50,302 nucleotides of DNA from an uncultured Candidatus Saccharibacteria bacterium (GTDB taxonomy: Bacteria; Patescibacteriota; Minisyncoccia; Phycocordibacterales; SBAW01). The stretch is taken from NCBI GenBank assembly GCA_964566795.1, contig CAZMIU010000001.1:280789-331090 (forward strand). The letters run 5' to 3'. Position numbers and translations under genes: made by a program. Positions 3,981-44,447 of this stretch are shown here, piece by piece. The notes beneath the pieces are model-generated. The model was not told the origin of the DNA. It did no database searches and saw only the letters and a program-made list of their open reading frames with translations. Position 1 is the first letter of the stretch; every line of letters begins with the position of its first letter.

Positions 3981-4238
3981 ATGGCAACCAACGCAGAGGT
4001 CACCAAAAACGAGAACGAGAACGCGATCAACCTGATCCGCCGCTTTAGTAAGCGCGTACAGGGCACGGGGCTCATTCAGGGTACCCGCAAGCGCCGCTAC
4101 TTTGCCCGCGCCAAGTCTAAGTTGGTAACCCGCAAAGGGGCTCTCAAGCGCCTCGCCCGCCGCGAGGAGGTCCAGGAGCTCATCAAGCTTGGCAAGATGG
4201 AGGCACGCGTGCCCGGCCAGCGCTTCCGCCGCAAGTAA
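3981..4238 (+). CDS. rpsU: 30S ribosomal protein bS21
   Basis: Small basic protein with ENAINLIRRFSKRV...RKRRYF, the S21 pattern. Confidence 0.82.
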   Translation: MATNAEVTKNENENAINLIRRFSKRVQGTGLIQGTRKRRYFARAKSKLVTRKGALKRLARREEVQELIKLGKMEARVPGQRFRRK

Positions 4239-4243
4239 TATCT

Positions 4244-4582
4244 GTGAGGCGTATCCCGCCCGTATTTAAAAAGATCCAGGCCGAGATACTCGGCCCGAAA
4301 TACGACCTGTCGGTCGTATTTTTAGATGAGCGTGAAATGCGTAAAGCAATGAAGTACCGTTACGCGCGTATCGCCGGCAAAAAGACCAGCAATGTGCTCT
4401 CCTTCCCCCTCTCCAAAACTAGCGGCGAGATTTTAATCTGTCCCGCGGCAGCCAAGCCCTACACTGCCCCGTATCTTTTTATCCACGGCTGTCTGCACCT
4501 TAAGGGGCGCAAACACAGTGATACAATGGAGCGTGAAGAGAACCGGATTTTGAATAAATTCGGTCTTCACGCGCATGAATAA
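4244..4582 (+). CDS. ybeY: rRNA maturation endoribonuclease YbeY (short)
   Basis: TSNVLSFP, GEILIC and the zinc motif HGCLHLKGRKH; GTG start. Confidence 0.9.
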   Translation: MRRIPPVFKKIQAEILGPKYDLSVVFLDEREMRKAMKYRYARIAGKKTSNVLSFPLSKTSGEILICPAAAKPYTAPYLFIHGCLHLKGRKHSDTMEREENRILNKFGLHAHE

Positions 4583-7694: not shown

Positions 7695-8741
7695 ATGTTT
7701 GACCTTGCCATTATAGGCGGTGGCCCCGCTGGTGTCGCTGCGGGGGTATATGCCGCGCGTAAGCGGCTCAAGACCGTCTACATTACGGAGACCTTTGGCG
7801 GGCAATCCACCGACTCACTCGATATCCAAAACTGGATAGGCACGCCGCATATCCCGGGCGTGGAGCTCGCTAAAACCTTTGAGGCGCACCTGCGCGAGTA
7901 TGCGGGAGATGTTGTAGACATCAAAGCTCCGGAGCGGGCTACTAACGTTGAAAAAGGGGCGAATGGCTTTGTAATTACCACAGACAAAGGTTCGTACGAG
8001 GCTAAAACTGTACTCGTAGCCACAGGCGGCGCACGGCGCAAGCTCGAGGTACCGGGCGCGGCACAATACGAAAACAAGGGCATTGTCTACTGCGCCTCCT
8101 GCGACGGCCCGCTCTTTGCGGGCCAGGACACCGTCGTCATTGGCGCAGGCAACGCCGGGTTTGAGACCGCGGCGCAGCTTTTGGCCTATGCCAAGTCGGT
8201 AACACTCCTCAACCGCCGCGATACGTTTGAGAAGGCCGACGCCAAAACCGTAGAGGCGGTTAAGGCGCACCCCCACATGACCATCCTCACCAACACCGAG
8301 CCTGTGGAGGTCAAAGGCGACAAGTTTGTATCGGGCATCGTGGTTAAAAACACACAGACCGGCGAGCAAAAAGAGATTCCTGCGGGTGGTATCTTTGTCG
8401 AGATCGGGGCGCTCCCGGCGACCGGCTTTGTGCAGGGGTTAATTGAGATGGACCAGTTTGGCCATATCAAGGTAGACCCAAGAACACAGCGTGCGTACCC
8501 ACTTACCCAAACTCAAAAAAATGATTCAGATGCAAGGCGTGGGGAAAGTGCAGAGGGAGGCGTACCTCAAGGTACGATGACCGAGGCACAGGGGCCCCAC
8601 AACGCAGCAGATGAGTCGTTTTTTGGAGTTTGGGCTGCGGGCGACTGCACCGACGGCCTATACCACCAAAACAACATCGCTGCGGGCGACGCGGTTAAGG
8701 CGCTGGAGGACATCTACCTCTATATCAAGTCACACGCCTAG
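7695..8741 (+). CDS. trxB: Thioredoxin reductase-like FAD oxidoreductase carrying an in-frame palindromic insertion
   Basis: GGGPAG, CASC redox centre, GAGNAG, GVWAAGD; about 40 extra residues before GVWAAGD. Confidence 0.88.
   Translation: MFDLAIIGGGPAGVAAGVYAARKRLKTVYITETFGGQSTDSLDIQNWIGTPHIPGVELAKTFEAHLREYAGDVVDIKAPERATNVEKGANGFVITTDKGSYEAKTVLVATGGARRKLEVPGAAQYENKGIVYCASCDGPLFAGQDTVVIGAGNAGFETAAQLLAYAKSVTLLNRRDTFEKADAKTVEAVKAHPHMTILTNTEPVEVKGDKFVSGIVVKNTQTGEQKEIPAGGIFVEIGALPATGFVQGLIEMDQFGHIKVDPRTQRAYPLTQTQKNDSDARRGESAEGGVPQGTMTEAQGPHNAADESFFGVWAAGDCTDGLYHQNNIAAGDAVKALEDIYLYIKSHA
8506..8634 (+). repeat. Palindromic element family 2, in-frame in trxB (129 bp = 43 codons)
   Basis: 23-nt arms CCCAAACTCAAAAAAATGATTCA and TGAGTCGTTTTTTGGAGTTTGGG; inner stems GCGTGGGG/CCCCACAACGC, GTGC/GCAC and CGTACC-TCAA-GGTACG. 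Confidence 0.85.
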
Positions 8742-9883
8742 CGGCAAATGTAGTCGAGGAGCATTTTGTGTACCGTGCGCATGCCCGCTTCCTTGCGCAA
8801 GGCCCGGCGCGCAGAGGGGCTTATTACCGTAACGCTCATATCCTCGAGTTTTTTAAACACTTCGCGCGGCTTGCCAAAGTCTACAATAAGCTCCGACAAG
8901 CCCGCCCTCTCAAACACCTCGGCCACGCCCATGTTGCGGCTAACAAACGCGGGTGTACCGCAGGCCACGGCCTCCTGGGCCACATTGCCGTATGTCTCAA
9001 AATAGGACGGGCATATGATCGCGCCCATGCGCGCATAAAAGTTTGCAAGGTCGGCGTTTTTTGAGTACGACCTGGAGAATTTGACCCGGTCGTGCAGCAC
9101 CTTGGTCGCGTGCTGGCGGCTCACATCATCGGTCAGCACGTGTATCTCAAAAGGCGACCCGGCTTTGCGGTTTATCTCGACAAGCCGGACCAAAAACGCC
9201 GTGTTTTTGATGCGTGTCCAGCGGCCCACAAACCCGATACGGCGCTTGGTCTTGCGGCCTTGCGCCTTAAAAAAGGCGTCGGGTATGGCGTTGGGCAATA
9301 CTGCCGCATGCCTGCGGTATATGGGGTGGCGAAACACCTCGGTCTCCACATGCTTTTTAATCAGCTGCGAGGGAAATATATAGCGTATGTCCGCCCGGTC
9401 AAACGAGGCTTCCATGCTTGCCAAAATGTTTTTTGCGCCGTCCTCCTTCCAGTGCTCGGTCTCTTTGGTAAGAGAGCCGTGATAGTACAGCACCACAGGC
9501 AGCCTTAGCGAGCGGGCGGCCATGACAAGACACCACGGGACAAAATATGTGCCGTTTGCCAGCACAATATCGGGCCGCTCCTCCTTAAGTTTTATCCTAA
9601 ATGCCTCGGTTAGCTCACTGTATGCCTGTCGCAAGTCGTCCAGCGACCGGGCGGAGCGCACCGCATCGCCAAACACAGGCACCGGGCCGCCGTACTCAAG
9701 TATGCGGCCGGAGGGCATGGCGGTTTCTGTCCATCCCTTGCCCGAGGACGTGTGAGACAGCGTGACATACACAAGCTCTATGGGGCCCGACTTCTTAGAC
9801 GACTTTACAAACTCCGAGAAGGAGCCCATAACGCGGCTAATGCCGGCCACATGGGAGGTCTGTACATTTGCGAATATTTTCAT
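8738..9883 (-). CDS. Glycosyltransferase, GT-B fold (GT4-like)
   Basis: FVGRWTRIKN, PSYFETYGNVAQEAVACGTP (E-x7-E motif). Confidence 0.88.
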   Translation of the reverse strand: MKIFANVQTSHVAGISRVMGSFSEFVKSSKKSGPIELVYVTLSHTSSGKGWTETAMPSGRILEYGGPVPVFGDAVRSARSLDDLRQAYSELTEAFRIKLKEERPDIVLANGTYFVPWCLVMAARSLRLPVVLYYHGSLTKETEHWKEDGAKNILASMEASFDRADIRYIFPSQLIKKHVETEVFRHPIYRRHAAVLPNAIPDAFFKAQGRKTKRRIGFVGRWTRIKNTAFLVRLVEINRKAGSPFEIHVLTDDVSRQHATKVLHDRVKFSRSYSKNADLANFYARMGAIICPSYFETYGNVAQEAVACGTPAFVSRNMGVAEVFERAGLSELIVDFGKPREVFKKLEDMSVTVISPSARRALRKEAGMRTVHKMLLDYICR

Positions 9884-10396: not shown

Positions 10397-10810
10397 TTAC
10401 AGGCGCTTGAGTAGAACAAAGTTACCCCTAAACCCGGACACCCCCGATGCACCCTCGTCTATGTCGCCCACTCTCACCACCACTTGCCCCGGCTCCTCAA
10501 ACACGCCAATTTCTTGCCCGCGGACACCAAACCAGCACACCACGCGCGACTTCTCGTACTCCATATAGTCACCCTCCTCAACGGCACACGTGCCGTCATA
10601 CTCTCCCAGGTCGTAGGTGCCAGAGCTGCTCTTTAGCATCACCTTTGTGCTTGTCTTCTCACCGCTGCCCTGCTGGCTAAAGCGCCACTCGTAGGCGCCG
10701 TCTGCCACACCGGGCGAGTAACTGTCGTGCACAAACACGATATACCCCACACCAAGGAGCAGGACCACAATAAGCCACAGGCGCCATGCACGCTTAATGG
10801 TGCGCATCAT
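10397..10810 (-). CDS. Hypothetical membrane-anchored or secreted protein
   Basis: Basic N-terminus, hydrophobic helix and a soluble domain with two Cys. Confidence 0.75.
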   Translation of the reverse strand: MMRTIKRAWRLWLIVVLLLGVGYIVFVHDSYSPGVADGAYEWRFSQQGSGEKTSTKVMLKSSSGTYDLGEYDGTCAVEEGDYMEYEKSRVVCWFGVRGQEIGVFEEPGQVVVRVGDIDEGASGVSGFRGNFVLLKRL

Positions 10811-10828
10811 AGCTCTAGTATATCAGCG

Positions 10829-11542
10829 CTAAATCTTTTCTATCGTGGTAGCCCACAAGACGCCGTCTATGTCGTAGCTTGTGGTGGACTCGGCCGGGTG
10901 TATGACGCCAGAGACGCGCAGCTTGGTCCCCGTCGGATAGTCGACCGGATAGGTCGACATGAGCGCAGTGTTTATTGCCAGGTGCCCGTCGCTCTGGTCT
11001 AGGGCAATGCCAAACGCGCACTCAGCGGTGTGCGGGCCGTCCCCTTTTTTAGGCAGACACTCCCAGTAGCCCACCACGCTCACGCGCTCGGGCTGCACTG
11101 CGCTCTGCGCACTGCCCTCCATGCGCAGCGATGCGCCCGTGCGGTCGGTACGGTACACGTACTCGCGACCCTTGGCGCGCATCTCGACCCTAAAGCCCTC
11201 TACCAGGGCCGCCAGGCATGACTCCGCCGGGCCGCCAAGCCCGAGGCATCCGTCAGGCCAAGTCCTGTCCTCCACGAGCATGATGGTGATCTCATTTGCC
11301 GTGATGCCGAGCTTGGCAGCCAGGTCGGCGCGCGCCGCCGCAGCGGCGGGCTCGGGCTCCATGCCGTGTATGCCGCCGCTGCCCGGCGCCACGCCGTCGG
11401 CCGATGTAACCGGCACCTGTGTTTGGTTGGTAGTATCCTGTGGAGATGGCGCGGCTCCGGGCCCCTTGCCCGCATACGCCCAGTACCCCGCCCCCGCGAG
11501 CACAACAATAGCAAGCACAACAAACGCTGTTTTGGTGTTCAT
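10829..11542 (-). CDS. Hypothetical membrane-anchored surface protein with WPDGCLG...C motif
   Basis: N-terminal anchor, Pro/Ala linker and two Cys pairs; TACAAT-N6-ATG leaderless start. Confidence 0.8.
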   Translation of the reverse strand: MNTKTAFVVLAIVVLAGAGYWAYAGKGPGAAPSPQDTTNQTQVPVTSADGVAPGSGGIHGMEPEPAAAAARADLAAKLGITANEITIMLVEDRTWPDGCLGLGGPAESCLAALVEGFRVEMRAKGREYVYRTDRTGASLRMEGSAQSAVQPERVSVVGYWECLPKKGDGPHTAECAFGIALDQSDGHLAINTALMSTYPVDYPTGTKLRVSGVIHPAESTTSYDIDGVLWATTIEKI

Positions 11543-16160: not shown

Positions 16161-17291
16161 ATGAAAGTGCTCGCCATAGAGACCTCCTGCGACGAAACAG
16201 GCATCGCACTCCTTGAGGGCCGCCACAGTGGCGAGACAATGGAGTTTGTGACACTCAAGGCCGAGCTCCTGAGCCAGGCCAAACTCCACGCCCCGTTTGG
16301 AGGCGTCTTCCCCGCGCTCGCCAAGCGCGAGCACACCAAAAACTTGCCGGTGTTGTTTGAGCCGTTTAAAGATGACCAGTTTGACGCCGTAGTTGTGACA
16401 GCCGGACCCGGACTCGAGCCTGCGCTCTGGACAGGCATCGAGTTTGCCAAACAGGTCGCGAGCGAGCGCGGCGTGCCGGTGCTGCCGGTAAACCACATGG
16501 AGGGGCACATTATCTCCTCTCTTGCAGAACGACACCCTGACAAACTTGAGAATGTCGGGATGTCAGTAATTAAAGACGTGCAGTTTCCGGTGCTTGCTCT
16601 GCTAATTTCTGGCGGGCACACGGAGTTAGTACTTACGAAGGATTGGTTTGAGTACGAGATGCTCGGCCGCACGCTCGACGACGCCGTGGGCGAGGCGTTT
16701 GACAAAGTGGCGAGGATGCTCGAGTTGCCCTACCCCGGCGGCCCGGAGATTTCCAAACTTGCATCAAAAAGCCGGGCAGAAAAAGCTACGGGCAAAAGTC
16801 TGGCCGAATCAAATGAGGAGACCCGAGGACTTTTGAACGGAGGTTTTTCTGCCCGGCTCCCGCGCCCCATGCTCAATACCAACTCGTGTGACATGTCTTT
16901 TTCCGGTTTAAAAACAGCTGCACTGTACGCACTAAAAGACAAAAATCTGGCTGCAGAGGAAAAAGCTGCGTTTGCCGCGGAGTTTGAGGATGCCGTGGCC
17001 GAGGTGTTGTGTGCCAAGGTGCGCCGCGCCCTTAATGAAAGCGGCGCCAAGACATTTGTCATTGGCGGCGGTGTGGCGGCCAACCGCTACATCCGCGAGG
17101 AGCTGCAAAAGATAATTCTCGAGGAGTTCTCCGATGTCGAGTTCAGGCTCCCCCACCTCTCCATCACCGGCGACAACGCAGTCATGATAGGCGAGGCCGC
17201 GCTCGCCCGCCTCCTCTTGGGGCACCAGACCCTCGATTCCGCAAGGTTCGACCTTGCGGTAGAGGCCCGCGGCAACCTTTCTTTGGCTTAA
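16161..17291 (+). CDS. tsaD: tRNA N6-threonylcarbamoyladenosine transferase TsaD carrying an in-frame palindromic insertion
   Basis: IETSCDET, HMEGH, SGGHT, DDAVGEAFDK, SFSGLKT, TGDNAVMIG. Confidence 0.96.
   Translation: MKVLAIETSCDETGIALLEGRHSGETMEFVTLKAELLSQAKLHAPFGGVFPALAKREHTKNLPVLFEPFKDDQFDAVVVTAGPGLEPALWTGIEFAKQVASERGVPVLPVNHMEGHIISSLAERHPDKLENVGMSVIKDVQFPVLALLISGGHTELVLTKDWFEYEMLGRTLDDAVGEAFDKVARMLELPYPGGPEISKLASKSRAEKATGKSLAESNEETRGLLNGGFSARLPRPMLNTNSCDMSFSGLKTAALYALKDKNLAAEEKAAFAAEFEDAVAEVLCAKVRRALNESGAKTFVIGGGVAANRYIREELQKIILEEFSDVEFRLPHLSITGDNAVMIGEAALARLLLGHQTLDSARFDLAVEARGNLSLA
16770..16858 (+). repeat. Palindromic element family 1, copy B (in-frame in tsaD)
   Basis: 18-nt arms AGCCGGGCAGAAAAAGCT and AGGTTTTTCTGCCCGGCT; core AGTCTGGCC (16797-16805) and GGAGACCCGAGGACT (16817-16831). 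Confidence 0.9.
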
Positions 17292-17314: not shown

Positions 17315-19381
17315 ATGGCAGTCCCGGACAAGTTTTTAAAACCCTACGACCCCAAGGCAACAGAGGCCTCTATATATAAGGAGTGGGAGGAGTCCGGCTA
17401 CTTTAACCCAGACAATCTCCCCAAGATAGACGGCAGGGAGCGCACCGAGCCCTTTACCATTATCATGCCGCCGCCCAACGCCAACGGCTCCCTCCACGCC
17501 GGGCATGCATTGTTTGTAACACTCGAGGACATCATGACCCGCTTTAACCGCATGCGCGGCAAAAAGGCGCTCTGGCTCCCCGGCGCCGACCACGCCGGCT
17601 TTGAGACCCAGGTCGTGTACGAGAAAAAGCTCGAGAAGGAGGACCGCTCGCGCTTTGACATGGCCCCCGAGGATCTCTACCGCGAGATCATGGACTTTAC
17701 GCTCCACAACAAGTCATTTATGGAGGGTCAGTTGCGCCAGCTCGGAGCATCGTGCGACTGGTCTCGCGAGATGTTTACGCTCGATAAGCGCGTTATCTCC
17801 ACCGTGTACGACACCTTCCTCAAACTCAACGAAGACGGCCTCCTCTACCGCGGCAGCCGCATCGTCAACTGGTGCCCCAAGCACCAAACCTCTTTGTCCA
17901 ACCTCGAAACAGACCGCGAGCCGCGCACAGACAAGTTTTACTACCTCAAGTACGGGCCCTTTACTATCGCAACAGCCCGCCCCGAGACCAAGTTTGGAGA
18001 CAAGTATGTGGTGATGCACCCGGACGATAGCCGCTACGCCGAGTTTAAAGACGGCCAGCAGATTGAGCTTGAGTGGATAAACGGCCCCATCACCGCCACG
18101 GTTATTAAAGACGAGGCAATAGACATGGAACTCGGCACCGGCGTTATGACGATTACGCCGTGGCACGATCCCACCGACTTCGACATCGCCCAGCGCCACA
18201 AGCTCTCCTTTGAGCAGATTATCGACTGGCGCGGCAAGCTACTGCCTATCGCGGGCGAATTTGCCGGGATGAACATAAAGGAGGCCCGCGGCAAAATTTT
18301 AGAAAAGCTCGAGAGTAAGGGCTTGGTAGACAAAGTAGACGACTCATACACCCACGAGGTGCCAGTGTGCTACAAGTGCGGCCGCGAGATCGAGCCGCAG
18401 GTCAAGGAGCAGTGGTTTATCAAAATGCAGCCCCTGGCACAAAAAGCCATAGAGGCTGTCAAAGCACGCCGCGTGCATGTCCTCACCGAGAACCACGAAA
18501 AGATCCTTCTGCATTGGCTCGAAAACATCCAGGACTGGAACGTCTCGCGCCAGATTGTGTGGGGCATCCCTATCCCCGCCTGGCAAAAAGACGGACAATG
18601 GAAGATATCTGTAGAGTCTCCGGGCGAGGGCTGGGTTAAAGACACCGACACTTTTGACACCTGGTTTAGCTCTGGGCAGTGGCCGTTTGCAACTCTGGGC
18701 TACCCGGACGCACAGGATTTTAAAACCTTCTACCCCACCAATGTTATGGAGACGGGCTCAGACCTTATCTTCTTCTGGGTGGCGCGCATGATAATGCTCG
18801 GGCTCTACCGCACGGGCGAGGTGCCGTTTACATACGTATACATGCACGGGCTTGTGCGCGACGCCAAGGGTATGAAGATGAGCAAGTCCAAGGGCAACGT
18901 GATATCGCCGCTCGAGGTATCTGACCAGTACGGCACAGACGCGCTGCGCATGGGCCTTGTGGTGGGCAACACGCCGGGCACAGACCTTAACCTCGACCCC
19001 AAAAAGATCGAGGCCTACAAGAAGTTTGCCAACAAGCTCTGGAACATTGCACGCTTTGTGTTGGCCAGCGAGAATACCGGCGAGATACTACCGGCACTTA
19101 AGGCCGAGTTTGATGAAATGGCTGCAGACGTGACCCTCGACATAGACAACTTCCGGATACATCTGGCCGCAGAAAAGCTCTACCACTACCTGTGGGGCCG
19201 CTTCGCTGCAGAAATTATAGAGGAGAGCAAGGGTAGCCCCAAGTATGGCGCAACCCTGTACTACATCCTGGAGAACTCGCTCAGGCTCCTGCACCCGTTT
19301 ATGCCGTTTGTCACCGAGGAGATCTGGAAAGACATGCCCGGCAAAAAAGATTTGTTGATGGTCGAGCAGTGGCCCTCGTAG
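17315..19381 (+). CDS. valS: Valyl-tRNA synthetase (short, no C-terminal coiled coil)
   Basis: PPPNANGSLHAGHA (HIGH), DWNVSRQ, DTWFSS, KMSKSKGN. Confidence 0.96.
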   Translation: MAVPDKFLKPYDPKATEASIYKEWEESGYFNPDNLPKIDGRERTEPFTIIMPPPNANGSLHAGHALFVTLEDIMTRFNRMRGKKALWLPGADHAGFETQVVYEKKLEKEDRSRFDMAPEDLYREIMDFTLHNKSFMEGQLRQLGASCDWSREMFTLDKRVISTVYDTFLKLNEDGLLYRGSRIVNWCPKHQTSLSNLETDREPRTDKFYYLKYGPFTIATARPETKFGDKYVVMHPDDSRYAEFKDGQQIELEWINGPITATVIKDEAIDMELGTGVMTITPWHDPTDFDIAQRHKLSFEQIIDWRGKLLPIAGEFAGMNIKEARGKILEKLESKGLVDKVDDSYTHEVPVCYKCGREIEPQVKEQWFIKMQPLAQKAIEAVKARRVHVLTENHEKILLHWLENIQDWNVSRQIVWGIPIPAWQKDGQWKISVESPGEGWVKDTDTFDTWFSSGQWPFATLGYPDAQDFKTFYPTNVMETGSDLIFFWVARMIMLGLYRTGEVPFTYVYMHGLVRDAKGMKMSKSKGNVISPLEVSDQYGTDALRMGLVVGNTPGTDLNLDPKKIEAYKKFANKLWNIARFVLASENTGEILPALKAEFDEMAADVTLDIDNFRIHLAAEKLYHYLWGRFAAEIIEESKGSPKYGATLYYILENSLRLLHPFMPFVTEEIWKDMPGKKDLLMVEQWPS

Positions 19382-28020: not shown

Positions 28021-28137
28021 GACTATATATGCTTAAGAAACGCACAATGCGCTCCCCTGTTAATACGAACCTCCTTAAGTATAGACCCCTCCTGGGACTA
28101 TGGCCCGTATCCTGGGGATATGCTATGCTACACATTA

Positions 28138-28428
28138 GCGCGTTAGGCAATAGCTCCGACGCCCCTTCCGGGGGTGCGGGGAGGAAAGTCCGGGCATCTA
28201 CCGAGCAATCGGTTAAAAAGGTAGCAGGTAACCCCTGCCATTTGCTCCTGCGGGCAAAAGAGGTGCGAACAGAGACGAGCCTCGGTCGAAAGACCGAGGG
28301 TGAAACGGCTAAATCCTTATCCAGATGCAAGGCCGTGCCGTGGCAACACGGAGTGCCGCTCGAGCCCCACGGCGACGTGGGGCCCAGATAAATTATTGTC
28401 CACGACAGAACCCGGCTTACAGACGCGC
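28138..28428 (+). ncRNA. rnpB: RNase P RNA (compact, about 290 nt)
   Basis: GAGGAAAGTCCGGGC (28181) and ACAGAACCCGGCTTAC conserved regions; P1 GCGCGTT/GACGCGC; terminator at 28437-28471. Confidence 0.95.
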
Positions 28429-28469
28429 GCGCAGATGCAAAAGCCCCCGGTAAACCGGGGGCTTTCGCT

Positions 28470-39024: not shown

Positions 39025-39813
39025 CGTCCTGCGTATTTCTCTCTCGCTTGCTCCGCGCTCCAAAAGGGCGCGGAGTTTGTTTGCGCGCTTTTGGCGGGTG
39101 CTGCCCTCAAACTTACTTTGTTTGGCGTAGTGCTTGCTTTTTTGGTTAAGCCGCACACCCTGGCGCTTGAGGTGCGAGCCGTAGTCCATAAGCGCCGCAT
39201 AAAAGTCCCTGGGCTGCATCTTAGACTTCTTTAGAGCCTGCTCAACAAGGGGCAAAAGCTCCCTGTCGCTTATACTAGTGTTTTGCAAAACACCAGAATA
39301 GATATGATGAAAGAAAACGGTGCGGATGTTTGTTTCTATAAACACCGTAGGCTCGTTAAAGGCAAATGCCTGGACTGCCGCAACAGTATATGGCCCAACA
39401 CCAGGGAGCTTTGCCCGCGAAGCGGAAACTTTCTGGAAAAATAGTCTGGCCCGCAAGCGCTCCGAGCGCGAGACGGGAGACCCGAGGACTTTTTTCTGGG
39501 AAGTTTCCGTGGAGAGTATCTTTCCTGTCTCCCACAGGTACTTGCCGCGGCGGTTGTAGCCCAGACCCTGCCAGGCTTTTAGCACGCGCGAGAGCGGTGC
39601 CATCGCAAGCACCCTAGGGGTCGGAAATAGTTTAAGCCAGCGCTCGTAGTACGGAATTACCCTCTCTACTTGGGTCTGCTGCAGCATCACCTCGCTCACC
39701 AAAATGCGGTACGGGTCGCGCGTGTGGCGCCAGGGCAAATGCCTGCGGGCGCTTGTCTTGTAGTGCTTTTTGAGCGCCGCTACAAGCTCCAAAATAGCCT
39801 TGTCGTGGCTCAT
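39013..39813 (-). CDS. mutY: MutY-like A/G-specific adenine glycosylase without the 4Fe-4S Cys motif, carrying an in-frame palindromic insertion
   Basis: LPWR, VSEVMLQQT, WQGLGYNRR, LPGVGPYT, ALMDYGS with no following Cys cluster. Confidence 0.85.
   Translation of the reverse strand: MSHDKAILELVAALKKHYKTSARRHLPWRHTRDPYRILVSEVMLQQTQVERVIPYYERWLKLFPTPRVLAMAPLSRVLKAWQGLGYNRRGKYLWETGKILSTETSQKKVLGSPVSRSERLRARLFFQKVSASRAKLPGVGPYTVAAVQAFAFNEPTVFIETNIRTVFFHHIYSGVLQNTSISDRELLPLVEQALKKSKMQPRDFYAALMDYGSHLKRQGVRLNQKSKHYAKQSKFEGSTRQKRANKLRALLERGASEREIRRTLDA
39422..39510 (+). repeat. Palindromic element family 1, copy C (in-frame and antisense in mutY)
   Basis: Arms GCGGAAACTTTCTGGAAAAATAGTCT and GGACTTTTTTCTGGGAAGTTTCCGT; core at 39443-39451 and 39476-39490. 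Confidence 0.9.
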
Positions 39814-42798: not shown

Positions 42799-44340
42799 CT
42801 AGTCGGCGGGCTCTATCAACCCCAGTTTAATTAAACGGGCGTGTATCGAGCCGCGCTGGCGGCCAAACTCTTTGACCAGTGCGGCTACGCCTGTGCCCTC
42901 CTCAAACATGGTTGTGAGTTTGTCGTCGTCGTCTTGTGTCCAAGGCCTGTAGGCGTTGGGGTGTTTTTGGCGCAGTTTGTCGAGCTTCGACATCTCAACC
43001 TCTGGCTTAGGTTTGTTTGGGTCGGGTTCGTGCCCGCCGGATGCTTTAGTAAACTGCTTGTGCATGTCCTCAATCTCCTCGGGCGGCAGTTTGCCAAATA
43101 TCTCCTCCGCGCTCATCGAGGCCGCGCGAAACGCCTGGTCTCGCGCCAAAATGTCCGGGTGCACAGCCAGAGCGCGCTCGTTAATGCCAAGCAGGTAGAG
43201 CCCGCTTAGGTTGCGCACACGGCTTAAAGCCACATAGCCCTGCCCATACTCAAACGCGTCCGATAAGTCCATCACCGCGGCATCAAGACTCATCCCCTGG
43301 CTCTTGTGCACCGTAATAGCCCACGCCAGGCGCAGCGGCACCTGCGTTATCTGTGCCAACACGCGGTTGCCGTCGGCCACCTGCCAGGTGTCTGGCTCGG
43401 CCTCTATAACCTTGCCGGCACGGGTTGCCACCTTGGGCCAACCGGCGTCGCTCCAGCCCACCACCGTGCCGAGTGTGCCGTTAACGTATCCGTGCTCAAA
43501 GTTGTTGCGCGTAAACATCACCGTCGCGCCCTCTTTTAAAGAAAGCGTCCCGGGCGATAAGCATCCGCGCTTAAGCGCTTCCACCAGAGTGGTAGAGCCC
43601 GATGAGCGCATGTGGTATACCTTGAGCGCGTTCTCTATGCGCGACAGCGCCTCCTCGTTTATACGGTCTACGTCCTCGTTGTGGGTATAAAGTCTGGTGG
43701 CGTCCTCGGGGAGCTCGCCCACTTCGTGCCGCGTCTTGAGCAGTTCGCGATGCTCATCCTCAAGCTCGCCTTGGCGCATCGCACCCAATAGCCCCAAGAA
43801 CATGCCGTCGTCCTGGCGGTGCTGCTCGTGTAAGTAGCACGTAAGCGGGTTGGCGTCCTCCCACGCGCCTGACTCAAAGGCAAATTTGGTTGGCCCCTCA
43901 CGCGACACCGGCGGTAATTGAAAGAAGTCGCCCACAAAGACAACCTGCAGCCCGCCAAAGGGCTTGTCGCTACCGCGCAGGGTGGTAAGTGCGCGGTCTA
44001 CCAGTGTTAAGAGGTTGGCATCGAGCATAGACACCTCGTCAATGATAAGCACCTGGGCCGCGCGCACACGCCGCACCAGAGGCTCGCGCTCCATAAGCGC
44101 CTCAAGCTCCCAGTCGCTGAGTGACTTTTTAATCCCCACACCGCTCCAGGCGTGTATGGTCATACCGCCCACGTGTGTGGCGGCAATACCTGTAGAGGCG
44201 GTAATAGCGGGCTCTATGCCGCGTTCGCGCAGCCACGCCACATAGCGGTTAATAACGTAGGTCTTGCCTGCGCCCGGCTCGCCTGTAAGGAATACGTTGG
44301 CTCCGGTCTTGAGTATTGTCAGTGCCTGCTCCTGTGTCAT
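42799..44340 (-). CDS. Pif1-family 5'-3' helicase with a small C-terminal helical domain
   Basis: GEPGAGKT, DEVSM, GDFFQLPPV, ITVHKSQGMS, YVALSRV; C-terminal AYRPWTQDDDDKL...I..RL.KLG. Confidence 0.92.
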   Translation of the reverse strand: MTQEQALTILKTGANVFLTGEPGAGKTYVINRYVAWLRERGIEPAITASTGIAATHVGGMTIHAWSGVGIKKSLSDWELEALMEREPLVRRVRAAQVLIIDEVSMLDANLLTLVDRALTTLRGSDKPFGGLQVVFVGDFFQLPPVSREGPTKFAFESGAWEDANPLTCYLHEQHRQDDGMFLGLLGAMRQGELEDEHRELLKTRHEVGELPEDATRLYTHNEDVDRINEEALSRIENALKVYHMRSSGSTTLVEALKRGCLSPGTLSLKEGATVMFTRNNFEHGYVNGTLGTVVGWSDAGWPKVATRAGKVIEAEPDTWQVADGNRVLAQITQVPLRLAWAITVHKSQGMSLDAAVMDLSDAFEYGQGYVALSRVRNLSGLYLLGINERALAVHPDILARDQAFRAASMSAEEIFGKLPPEEIEDMHKQFTKASGGHEPDPNKPKPEVEMSKLDKLRQKHPNAYRPWTQDDDDKLTTMFEEGTGVAALVKEFGRQRGSIHARLIKLGLIEPAD

Positions 44341-44346
44341 ATATCC

Positions 44347-44447
44347 GCAAAATCAGAGTTTGTAAGAGTACGGATAATTTTTTGCTAAAAATTTCCTCAA
44401 GTCTCGTGTCGTCACACTTGCGAAGCCTCTTACAAACTCTATTTTGC
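44347..44447. repeat. Palindromic element family 3 (intergenic, immediately upstream of pif1)
   Basis: Arms GCAAAATCAGAGTTTGTAAGAG (44347-44368) and CTCTTACAAACTCTATTTTGC (44427-44447) enclose two inner hairpins and GCGAAGC. Confidence 0.8.

Follow-up and report, generated by a model that had tools for sequence, protein, structure and literature searches.

Palindromic repeats that are translated as part of proteins are, to our knowledge, a textbook oddity essentially confined to Rickettsia, where the Rickettsia palindromic elements (RPE) were reportedly described by Ogata et al. in Science in 2000 and by Claverie and Ogata in 2003. Here we examine a similar situation in a 50,302-nucleotide stretch from a bacterium of the candidate phyla radiation (CPR), an uncultured Candidatus Saccharibacteria bacterium (assembly GCA_964566795.1, contig CAZMIU010000001.1, positions 280,789 to 331,090 of the forward strand), hereafter the window. 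Its trxB gene harbors, at 8506-8634 on the + strand, a 129-nt hairpin that is in frame with the host codons and represents a full-length copy of what we term family 2. We read the hairpin as a dispersed palindromic element that inserted in frame and is translated, while being constrained at the nucleic-acid level, and assign this reading a probability of about 0.6. By analogy, the element would resemble repetitive extragenic palindromes (REP) where it is intergenic, and RPE inside genes.

RPE, covered in a review (PMC10969869), share several features with family 2: palindromic repeats of 100-150 bp are dispersed in a small-genome bacterium, they enter housekeeping protein genes in frame as well as non-coding DNA and RNA genes, they are (or, in our case, would be) translated as surface segments, and the copies of one genome are old and divergent. 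The comparison, made by description only, also exposes differences. The hosts here are Paceibacteria and Rokubacteria, unrelated to Rickettsia, about 90% of the copies among the matches listed are intergenic and pinned to stop codons, and the core is conserved across phyla, with stems compensated at orthologous sites, constrained synonymous sites and a strong strand asymmetry. Considering these hosts, true RPE membership is unlikely, and the relation is rather one of elements that work alike.

The intergenic copies instead recall REP, BIME and REPIN sequences, which are associated with RAYT (Y1 HUH) transposases (PMC3116915, PMC3479197, PMC3733652). These too are extragenic hairpin repeats located after genes, REPIN form hairpins of ~100 nt whose stems keep pairing, and recognition of one strand as single-stranded DNA (ssDNA) has been proposed. 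However, REPs are 20-40 bp long, species-specific and near-identical within a genome, carry a GTAG/CGTC tag and do not occur in open reading frames (ORFs). Membership was rejected, as family 2 lacks the GTAG/CGTC tag, forms a single ~127-nt hairpin and displays a same-genome core identity of 49-73%.

Integron attC sites, exemplified by the 123-126-nt repeats of Vibrio cholerae, are imperfect palindromes of similar length that lie at or overlap the preceding stop codon in a fixed orientation, with one strand folding better than the other. On the other hand, attC sites conserve the outer R''/R' boxes (RYYYAAC / GTTRRRY) around a variable center, while family 2 conserves the center and ends in RRRAC / GTYYY, and the neighbors are core housekeeping genes in conserved operons rather than cassettes. 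We therefore rejected attC identity on account of the wrong end motifs, the conserved center and the housekeeping neighbors. No integrase was seen in the ORF list of L143, a locus with several copies described below.

Brown et al. reportedly documented rRNA insertions in CPR bacteria in 2015. Such intervening sequences are hairpin insertions of ~100-190 nt at the tips of rRNA helices, and one family 2 member (L130, 16S), not the trxB copy, is of this kind; the class is however defined by rRNA location and RNase III excision, and family 2 is found mainly outside rRNA. Finally, MITEs, or miniature inverted-repeat transposable elements, are likewise small and non-coding, have inverted repeats at their borders, are dispersed and now and then lie within genes, whereas family 2 shows no target-site duplication, no near-identical copies and no parent insertion sequence, and its terminal repeats are the least conserved part. 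MITE membership was rejected on the lack of target-site duplication and the poorly conserved ends.

The hairpin and its host gene

The host gene spans 7695-8741 (+) and encodes 348 residues, with no frameshift or stop across the element in the ORF list. Its product matches Pfam PF07992 (Pyr_redox_2, E = 1.8e-36), and also PF13738 and PF00070, with AhpF and TrxR as top relatives in the PDB; judged from these similarities, it is a TrxB/AhpF-C-like FAD-dependent, pyridine-nucleotide disulfide oxidoreductase. Residues ~266-306 are unmatched in the PDB alignments to AhpF and TrxR. Orthologues recovered by a protein search and a genome scan, the latter with one genome per GTDB species, come from Paceibacteria/CPR, and in Paceibacteria they form two length classes of ~307 aa and 345-350 aa. 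The linker Q265-G311, which precedes G-V-W-A-A-G-D and thus the FAD motif GxxAAGD, comprises 45 residues in the window protein and 5 in insert-less orthologues, where it reads Q-[M/E/R]-T-S-[V/A]-E-G ahead of G-[IV]-W-A-A-G-D, and the G-V-W codons are invariant across all trxB orthologues. The original prediction, made from the letters of the window, had proposed an insertion of about 44 residues where TrxB relatives have about 4. The insertion stands, with no counterpart in the PDB and orthologue alignments, while the exact linker lengths are 45 and 5, and the net gain is 40 codons rather than 43.

The hairpin was delineated by its fold, by covariance models and by covariation, and its model strand is the sense strand of trxB. 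It is 129 nt or 43 codons long, with inverted-repeat arms at 8506-8533 and 8607-8634 (28 nt, 82% complementary). The + strand RNA folds into one multi-stem hairpin of -76.2 kcal/mol (-70.8 for the - strand), and none of 200 dinucleotide shuffles folded as well on either strand (z about -7.3). The palindrome with nested stems and 23-nt outer arms recognized in the original prediction is thus real.

As defined by the fold and the family end profile, the 5' arm of the outer stem (8506-8528, +) consists of CCCAAACTC, a bulged A8515 and AAAAAATGATTCA, and includes the family-typical A-run (profile RRRAC at positions 3-7, AAA at 13-15). The 3' arm (8612-8634, +) comprises TGAGTCGTTTTTT, an unpaired G8625 and GAGTTTGGG, with a family profile of TTT at -14 to -12 and GTYYY at -6 to -2. 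With its final 10 nt (GGAGTTTGGG, 8625-8634), the hairpin coincides with the host G-V-W codons, and the left end CCCAAACTC is complementary to GAGTTTGGG, so the earlier observation that the outer stem enters these codons holds. Between the arms resides the conserved core (8529-8611, +), where the alignments reveal conserved loops, covarying stems and constrained third codon positions. In its outer part, 8529-30 oppose 8610-11 in an internal loop of tandem G-A / G-A, next to a TGC/GCA stem; the middle holds the loop AAGGC / AACGCA and a GTGGGG/CCCCAC stem; further inward follow variable inner stems, the motif GAG...YGA and a near-invariant apical stem, CGTACC-TCAA-GGTACG, at 8561-8576. Outside the hairpin, the left junction (8490-8505, +; codons R-A-Y-P-L and the first base of T271) is present in insert-bearing alleles only: Q-R-A-Y/Q is common to all of these and missing from the insert-less ones, and its third codon positions are as variable as those of the flanks (entropy 1.72).

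As a separate observation, the apical part, GAGCCGUAC-loop-GUACGGUGA (8557-8582 in the window, and the L052, L077 and L088 copies), is reminiscent of the lower helix in domain 5 of group II introns, which we take to be GAGCCGUAU...ACGUACGGUUC. The likeness may be coincidental, and no intron in Rfam matched.

Constraint on the nucleic acid rather than the peptide

Ten orthologous loci carry the insert at the identical site, and the hairpin is always exactly 129 nt long and in frame. RNAalifold analysis of these ten trxB copies detected compensatory double changes at 29 of 48 pairs, and in all ten loci it is the sense strand that has the more stable fold (in L013, -83.6 versus -63.1 for the antisense strand). 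The codon positions tell the same of the ten genes: entropies at positions 1/2/3 are 0.49/0.78/0.71 in the insert and 0.61/0.46/1.43 in flanking trxB. Relative to the flanks, the insert thus has half the variability at third positions and a higher one at second positions. This pattern, with constrained third and freer second positions, argues for constraint on the nucleic acid and its pairing and not on the peptide; the insert is under nucleotide-level, not amino-acid-level, constraint.

The product of the insertion, A267-F310 (44 aa, 8493-8624, +; residues 267-310 include GESAEGGVPQGTMTEAQGPHNAADESFFGVWAAGDCTDGLYHQNNIAAGDAVK), was modeled with AlphaFold2 using the trxB alignment. The oxidoreductase fold was recovered confidently (mean pLDDT 78.7), while residues 273-288 and 295-307 fell below a pLDDT of 50 and lacked secondary structure, so the insert is predicted to add a disordered loop to the enzyme. 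A phmmer search of the 44-aa peptide against 1.84 billion representative proteins returned no more than a fragment of TrxB and a single giant protein of low complexity, and an interpretation as a protein module was rejected, as no module relatives were found. The giant protein (P0122, 5364 aa) is similar to the insert peptide in five stretches (E = 4e-8, 41% identity), probably owing to low complexity.

More than 40 divergent insert-bearing alleles have a length that is always divisible by three and no stop, and this preserved frame is our argument that the insert is translated. Partial deletions also occur. P0015 and P0020 (316 aa) have lost the left arm and the core and kept the right half (QRAF--SPNEADEPFFGVW; SPNEADEPFF), and L035 (~10770-10853) retains a 15-residue remnant, AHLKSDSEKTATDAPLFA, in which the hairpin fold is gone, as expected for a dispensable insert. 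MAFFT paired the native M-T-S-A-E with M-T-E-A-Q of the insert, which we judged coincidental, since the intergenic copies have a homologous stretch.

A dispersed family with a conserved core

We then asked for further copies with two covariance models, R1 built from the ten trxB copies and the broadened R2, to which the window copy scores 134.4 and 128.2 bits, respectively. Within +-10 kb of trxB in 80 genomes, the models detected nine further copies, none inside trxB. A metagenome search with a pattern derived from the core (CGTAC-N4-7-GTACGRYGA-N16-30-CAACRMMGNAR) matched at least 120 contigs, and R2 confirmed all matches listed. Among these matches, to which the metagenome counts given below also refer, there are 136 copies at 25-112 bits (R2), with a density of up to five copies within 14 kb, and trxB hosts none of the 129 that were analyzed. 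Beyond trxB, the family totals at least ~145 copies from Paceibacteria and at least one Rokubacteria contig. The motif flagged in the original prediction hence recurs widely, by the models as well as by the pattern.

The pairing is well supported across the family. In a 19-copy alignment, 91.1% of the cells are paired, compared with 62.5% in shuffled and 33-45% in slid controls, and changes on both sides occur at 42 of 45 pairs. The loops RAGGCG / CAACRMMG, the GAG...YGA motif and the nearly invariant apical CGTAC/GTACG are conserved while the stems vary freely, and the tandem G-A/G-A internal loop stems from CAGATG on both arms. Element GC ranges from 0.29 to 0.73 and tracks the host contig; L201 represents a high-GC, non-CPR host with an RpoA that is 87-98% identical to Candidatus Rokubacteria proteins. 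The two strands are clearly not equivalent, for the model strand is the more stable one in 125 of 129 copies (mean difference 11.5 kcal/mol), accommodates 498 G-U pairs against 254 on the opposite strand, and is 58% purine.

No match in Rfam 15 was obtained for the trxB copy (E <= 10) or for the element in 16 other loci (E <= 1), where the other matches were rRNA, tRNA and introns outside the element. Two pattern matches in viral contigs were not confirmed by the model. A full-text literature search turned up no account of an element of this kind from CPR, which is not proof of absence, and the family is apparently undescribed.

Position and orientation at gene ends

The intergenic majority follows a sharp positional rule. 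In 96 of 116 scorable cases (83%), the gene downstream of the element, in model orientation, is on the opposite strand, and in 82 of these 96 its natural stop falls between -18 and +5 nt of the 3' end of the element, with a peak at -3 to +2. Read along the gene, its stop codon is thus followed by the model strand in reverse complement, then in some cases by an ordinary terminator, by ~70 nt and by the next gene. Neighbors include groEL, rpsI, rpsL, atpE, gyrB, dnaB, rpoA, rpoC, rpoD, nusG, greA, hsp20 and RNase Y, and in L052 trxB itself. A prepilin-like cluster (L143:155-10568; N-terminal GFTLIELL) looks like an array, with four successive pilin-like ORFs, each followed by an element within 1-3 nt of its stop, all on one strand. 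We know of no repeat class that explains this rule, with the end at a stop codon and the purine-loop strand antisense.

Among the sense-oriented minority, 13 copies lie ~20 nt upstream of a start codon. The rare copies at permissive sites, such as the tip of an rRNA helix or, if in frame, a protein surface loop, are all sense-oriented as well. In L130, a copy at 191-316 is contained in a 186-nt insertion (150-335) that replaces a 4-nt loop of a 16S helix (small-subunit rRNA model position ~1160). On one strand of L085 (1-881), a family 2 copy at 186-311 lies between a group I intron (346-881) and a 23S exon, of which a fragment is present (model 2285-2402). In L097, an in-frame copy in the PcrA/UvrD helicase results in 60 residues (an insertion of ~50 aa) in place of ~10 of PcrA. 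In-frame protein hosts are accordingly rare, with two (TrxB and PcrA/UvrD) among the at least ~145 copies. Separately, L130 has a match to group II intron D1-D4 (832-906) ~230 nt downstream of the 16S end.

Orientation can differ at one site, as seen in the ftsA-ftsZ spacer, where the copy is antisense in L017 and sense in L067. Inversion between the arms is expected to produce such flips, which means that selection must maintain the 83% bias; conceivably, only the leading-strand template tolerates the more stable hairpin. A role in read-through extension past the stop codon of the neighbor was rejected: the frame that continues from that stop shows no excess of openness over the two others, and open frames are only mildly enriched over shuffles.

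Six of the nine non-trxB copies near trxB (L061:4177-4302, L077:1-106, L052:10924-11049, L021:11334-11461, L017:364-491 and L067:6108-6233) occupy spacers of the ftsA-ftsZ-trxB cluster or abut trxB. They may reflect permissive spacers, or may have supplied the donor for the in-gene copy.

History of the insert-bearing allele

In a neighbor-joining tree of 120 orthologues with the insert columns removed, insert-bearing alleles are scattered, and in at least ten sister pairs one allele has the insert and the other lacks it. The closest relative of the window (P0008/L081) lacks the insert and has the canonical linker Q-MTSAE-G, despite 94% protein identity and ~90% DNA identity through ftsZ and trxB. 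The insert-less alleles always have the canonical linker and are therefore not deletion derivatives, and the shared junctions QRAY... and ...GVW of all insert-bearing alleles point to a single insertion event in trxB. Insert divergence roughly tracks the host clade. Together, scattered alleles and a single origin imply that the segment has been exchanged between lineages by homologous recombination, in either direction.

Downstream, the trxB (+) stop overlaps the stop of a convergent gene for a 381-aa GT4 glycosyltransferase (8738-9883, -; overlap 8738-8741), leaving zero intergenic space between the two gene ends in the window. L081 has a different gene downstream of trxB.

Selfish persistence or host function

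The family is best read as old and widespread, with single hairpins of ~127 nt persisting at permissive sites. For the trxB copy, we propose that insertion occurred once, that the insert would be translated as a disordered loop tolerated by the enzyme, and that homologous recombination later exchanged the insert-bearing segment between related Paceibacteria. The hairpin would be kept since its purine-loop strand, as single-stranded RNA or ssDNA, is recognized by a putative conserved trans-acting factor. New copies would arise rarely, through a copy process that leaves no target-site duplication, perhaps template switching at hairpins or a hairpin-specific enzyme, and later orientation flips would proceed by inversion between the arms.

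Several observations weigh against this picture of a translated, dispersing element. Translation is deduced solely from the preserved frame. The trxB copy is sense-oriented, unlike the 83% of intergenic copies that are antisense to their neighbors. Same-genome copies are never near-identical, so there is no sign of recent transposition; their low core identity also made us reject concerted evolution. We found neither a transposase nor a target-site duplication or a parent element at the copies examined, and no flanking dinucleotide or duplication is recurrent (TA at the helix ends in 12-16 of 133 copies), and an IS630/mariner-type MITE with TA target-site duplication was rejected as no such duplication was seen. 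Over the 180 nt before the insert, the window and L081 are only 74-82% identical, down from about 90%, which is suggestive of a recombination tract around it; the blocks before the insert are however the most variable in every pairwise comparison, and the protein-level clustering of differences is weak. Moreover, that loop sequences are kept between phyla and at orthologous sites is more in line with a host function than with selfish DNA.

Indeed, the conserved loops, the lack of similar same-genome copies and the sharp rules of position and orientation favor recognition of one strand, perhaps with a host function. We therefore offer, tentatively, a bolder version, in which family 2 would constitute a new class of strand-specific RNA/ssDNA element that marks gene 3' ends at stop codons in CPR and other phyla, its purine-rich loops kept for a putative partner and its stems free, and which would still be functional inside rRNA and ORFs, making the trxB copy a working element rather than a fossil insertion.

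The strongest competitor, which we regard as rather unlikely, is a structured nucleic-acid module that benefits the host and is not selfish DNA. It could be a 3'-end element (an A-tract/hairpin/T-tract terminator or a protector of mRNA ends), a protein-binding platform or an independent small RNA, and the trxB copy would then be a translatable cis-element of the ftsA-ftsZ-trxB transcript. Such a module would account for conserved loops and compensated stems at orthologous sites over deep divergence, for the constrained synonymous sites, for the age of same-genome copies, and for a core kept from CPR to Rokubacteria while GC follows the host; yet presence is patchy among close relatives, orientation differs at the same site, and the rRNA-tip copy and the copies in two unrelated proteins resemble insertion accidents. 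The precise placement at stop codons and the strong orientation bias are also congruent with a module, but in most copies the purine-loop strand, which folds better, runs antisense to the gene next to it and is thus absent from the mRNA of that gene. Similarly, the 5'-arm A-run and 3'-arm T-run resemble a bidirectional terminator. These runs are however short (mean 3.3 nt, at least 4 nt in 43-48%, or only ~45% for the T-runs) and located within the stem, and no T-run (U-tract in RNA) follows the full hairpin. The position of six of nine non-trxB copies in ftsA-ftsZ-trxB spacers speaks for a module in that transcript, whereas no promoter was found at a fixed distance upstream of the element.

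Origin of the arms

The original prediction had further proposed that integration creates an inverted copy of the adjacent target, by fold-back or template switching. Under such a mechanism, only the core would be mobile, and the arms would be specific to each locus without a direct duplication. At first sight this agrees with a core that is shared while arms differ at every locus, with the absence of direct target duplications, and with a trxB stem that includes the host G-V-W codons. The arms nevertheless follow a weak consensus over 133 copies, 5'-NNRRRAC...AAAWTG / CAWTTT...GTYYYNN-3', and the helix length is uniform to ~2 nt. Considering this family-wide consensus, the arms were inherited with the element and not made from arbitrary target DNA. 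Also the terminal AAAC/GTTT of the window copy, which mirrors the V-W codons by overlapping their GTTTGG, is family consensus, and only 2-3 further outer pairs (CC/GG) are locus-specific.

A direct comparison is provided by L088 and L116, both located after atpE, where flanks are 93-95%, cores ~88% and arms ~55% identical, the arms being unrelated yet complementary within each copy. Arms copied from the target would be alike, and target copying is thus not supported. Similarly, arm differences between trxB orthologues are ordinary substitutions with compensation. The stem takes in the last 1-6 codons of the neighbor in ~25-40% of the stop-codon copies, in line with fold-back, while the typical overlap is the stop codon only, not ~21 nt. 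We therefore consider an inverted-copy origin improbable and do not uphold that part of the prediction. In a weaker form, short stem extension by template switching could occur: the stem does grow outward into host codons over short distances, through either compensatory change in the free flank or template switching, but this growth is not the origin of the arms.

Probable retention of the insert in the protein

It is very improbable that the insert is missing from the mature protein, be it through RNase III-type excision, an intron, gene 60-type bypass or a mini-intein. The basal stem of 21-23 bp would be a plausible RNase III substrate, and family relatives reside in rRNA genes, where such excision is known; excision of the hairpin would however remove the essential G-V-W codons, and the open frame of the >40 divergent alleles requires selection on translation. 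No intron or ribozyme of Rfam matched. An intein or programmed bypass was rejected, for the 44 aa are far below intein size, with no intein blocks and a Gly instead of a C/S/T +1 residue, and the open frame contains neither a stop nor a take-off/landing codon pair.

That a protein loop evolved gradually with a coincidental palindrome has a practically negligible probability, for although surface loops do vary in length, the fold z-score is -7.3, orthologue lengths are bimodal with deletion derivatives as the only intermediates (orthologues either lack the insert or have the same palindrome), and the same structure recurs at the at least ~145 unrelated loci.

A second family and further elements of the window

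Family 2 is distinct from a family 1 in the same window, as was originally proposed: the trxB hairpin has no match to the family 1 core, and the family 2 models miss the family 1 copies. Family 1 has a ~20-bp variable outer stem, an A-run/T-run and the core RGTCTGGCC-(variable hairpin)-GGAGAMCCGAGGACY. Its copies at 2129-2214, 16770-16858 and 39423-39509 lie in TsaD (in frame, sense), in an HhH-GPD/MutY-like glycosylase (in frame, antisense) and in the pth-lepB divergent spacer. Related genomes share the TsaD and pth-lepB sites, and family 1 copies also occur at L003:~4212-4306, L007:~8178-8272, L012:~4085-4179 and ~17360-17454, and L015:~17889-17983; the TsaD copy is antisense in L007 and sense in the window. 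Family 1, with the same architecture, shows that the behavior of such hairpins is general in these genomes.

If our reading is correct, coding palindromic repeats in CPR would indicate a general outcome in small, compact genomes that extends beyond Rickettsia, with two similar families using TrxB, PcrA/UvrD, TsaD, a MutY-like glycosylase and 16S rRNA as hosts. Family 2 stands out as abundant, not in Rfam and cross-phylum, with textbook covariation, and it offers a clean case for separating selfish DNA from a terminator-like module and from a protein-binding site. From a practical viewpoint, such insertions inflate or fragment CPR protein and rRNA alignments, and can mislead gene callers and phylogenies.

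Another inverted repeat of the window, at 44350-44445, has 19-nt arms (AAATCAGAGTTTGTAAGAG / CTCTTACAAACTCTATTTT) that are 89% complementary and 58 nt apart; it adjoins the start of the ORF 42799-44340(-) and belongs to neither family. A gathering-threshold Rfam scan of the window returned only tRNAs and an RNase P RNA (28135-28435, bacterial type A). The latter spans 301 nt versus 367 model positions and scores 108.9 bits (threshold 100), which suggests a reduced form, as has been reported for small genomes.

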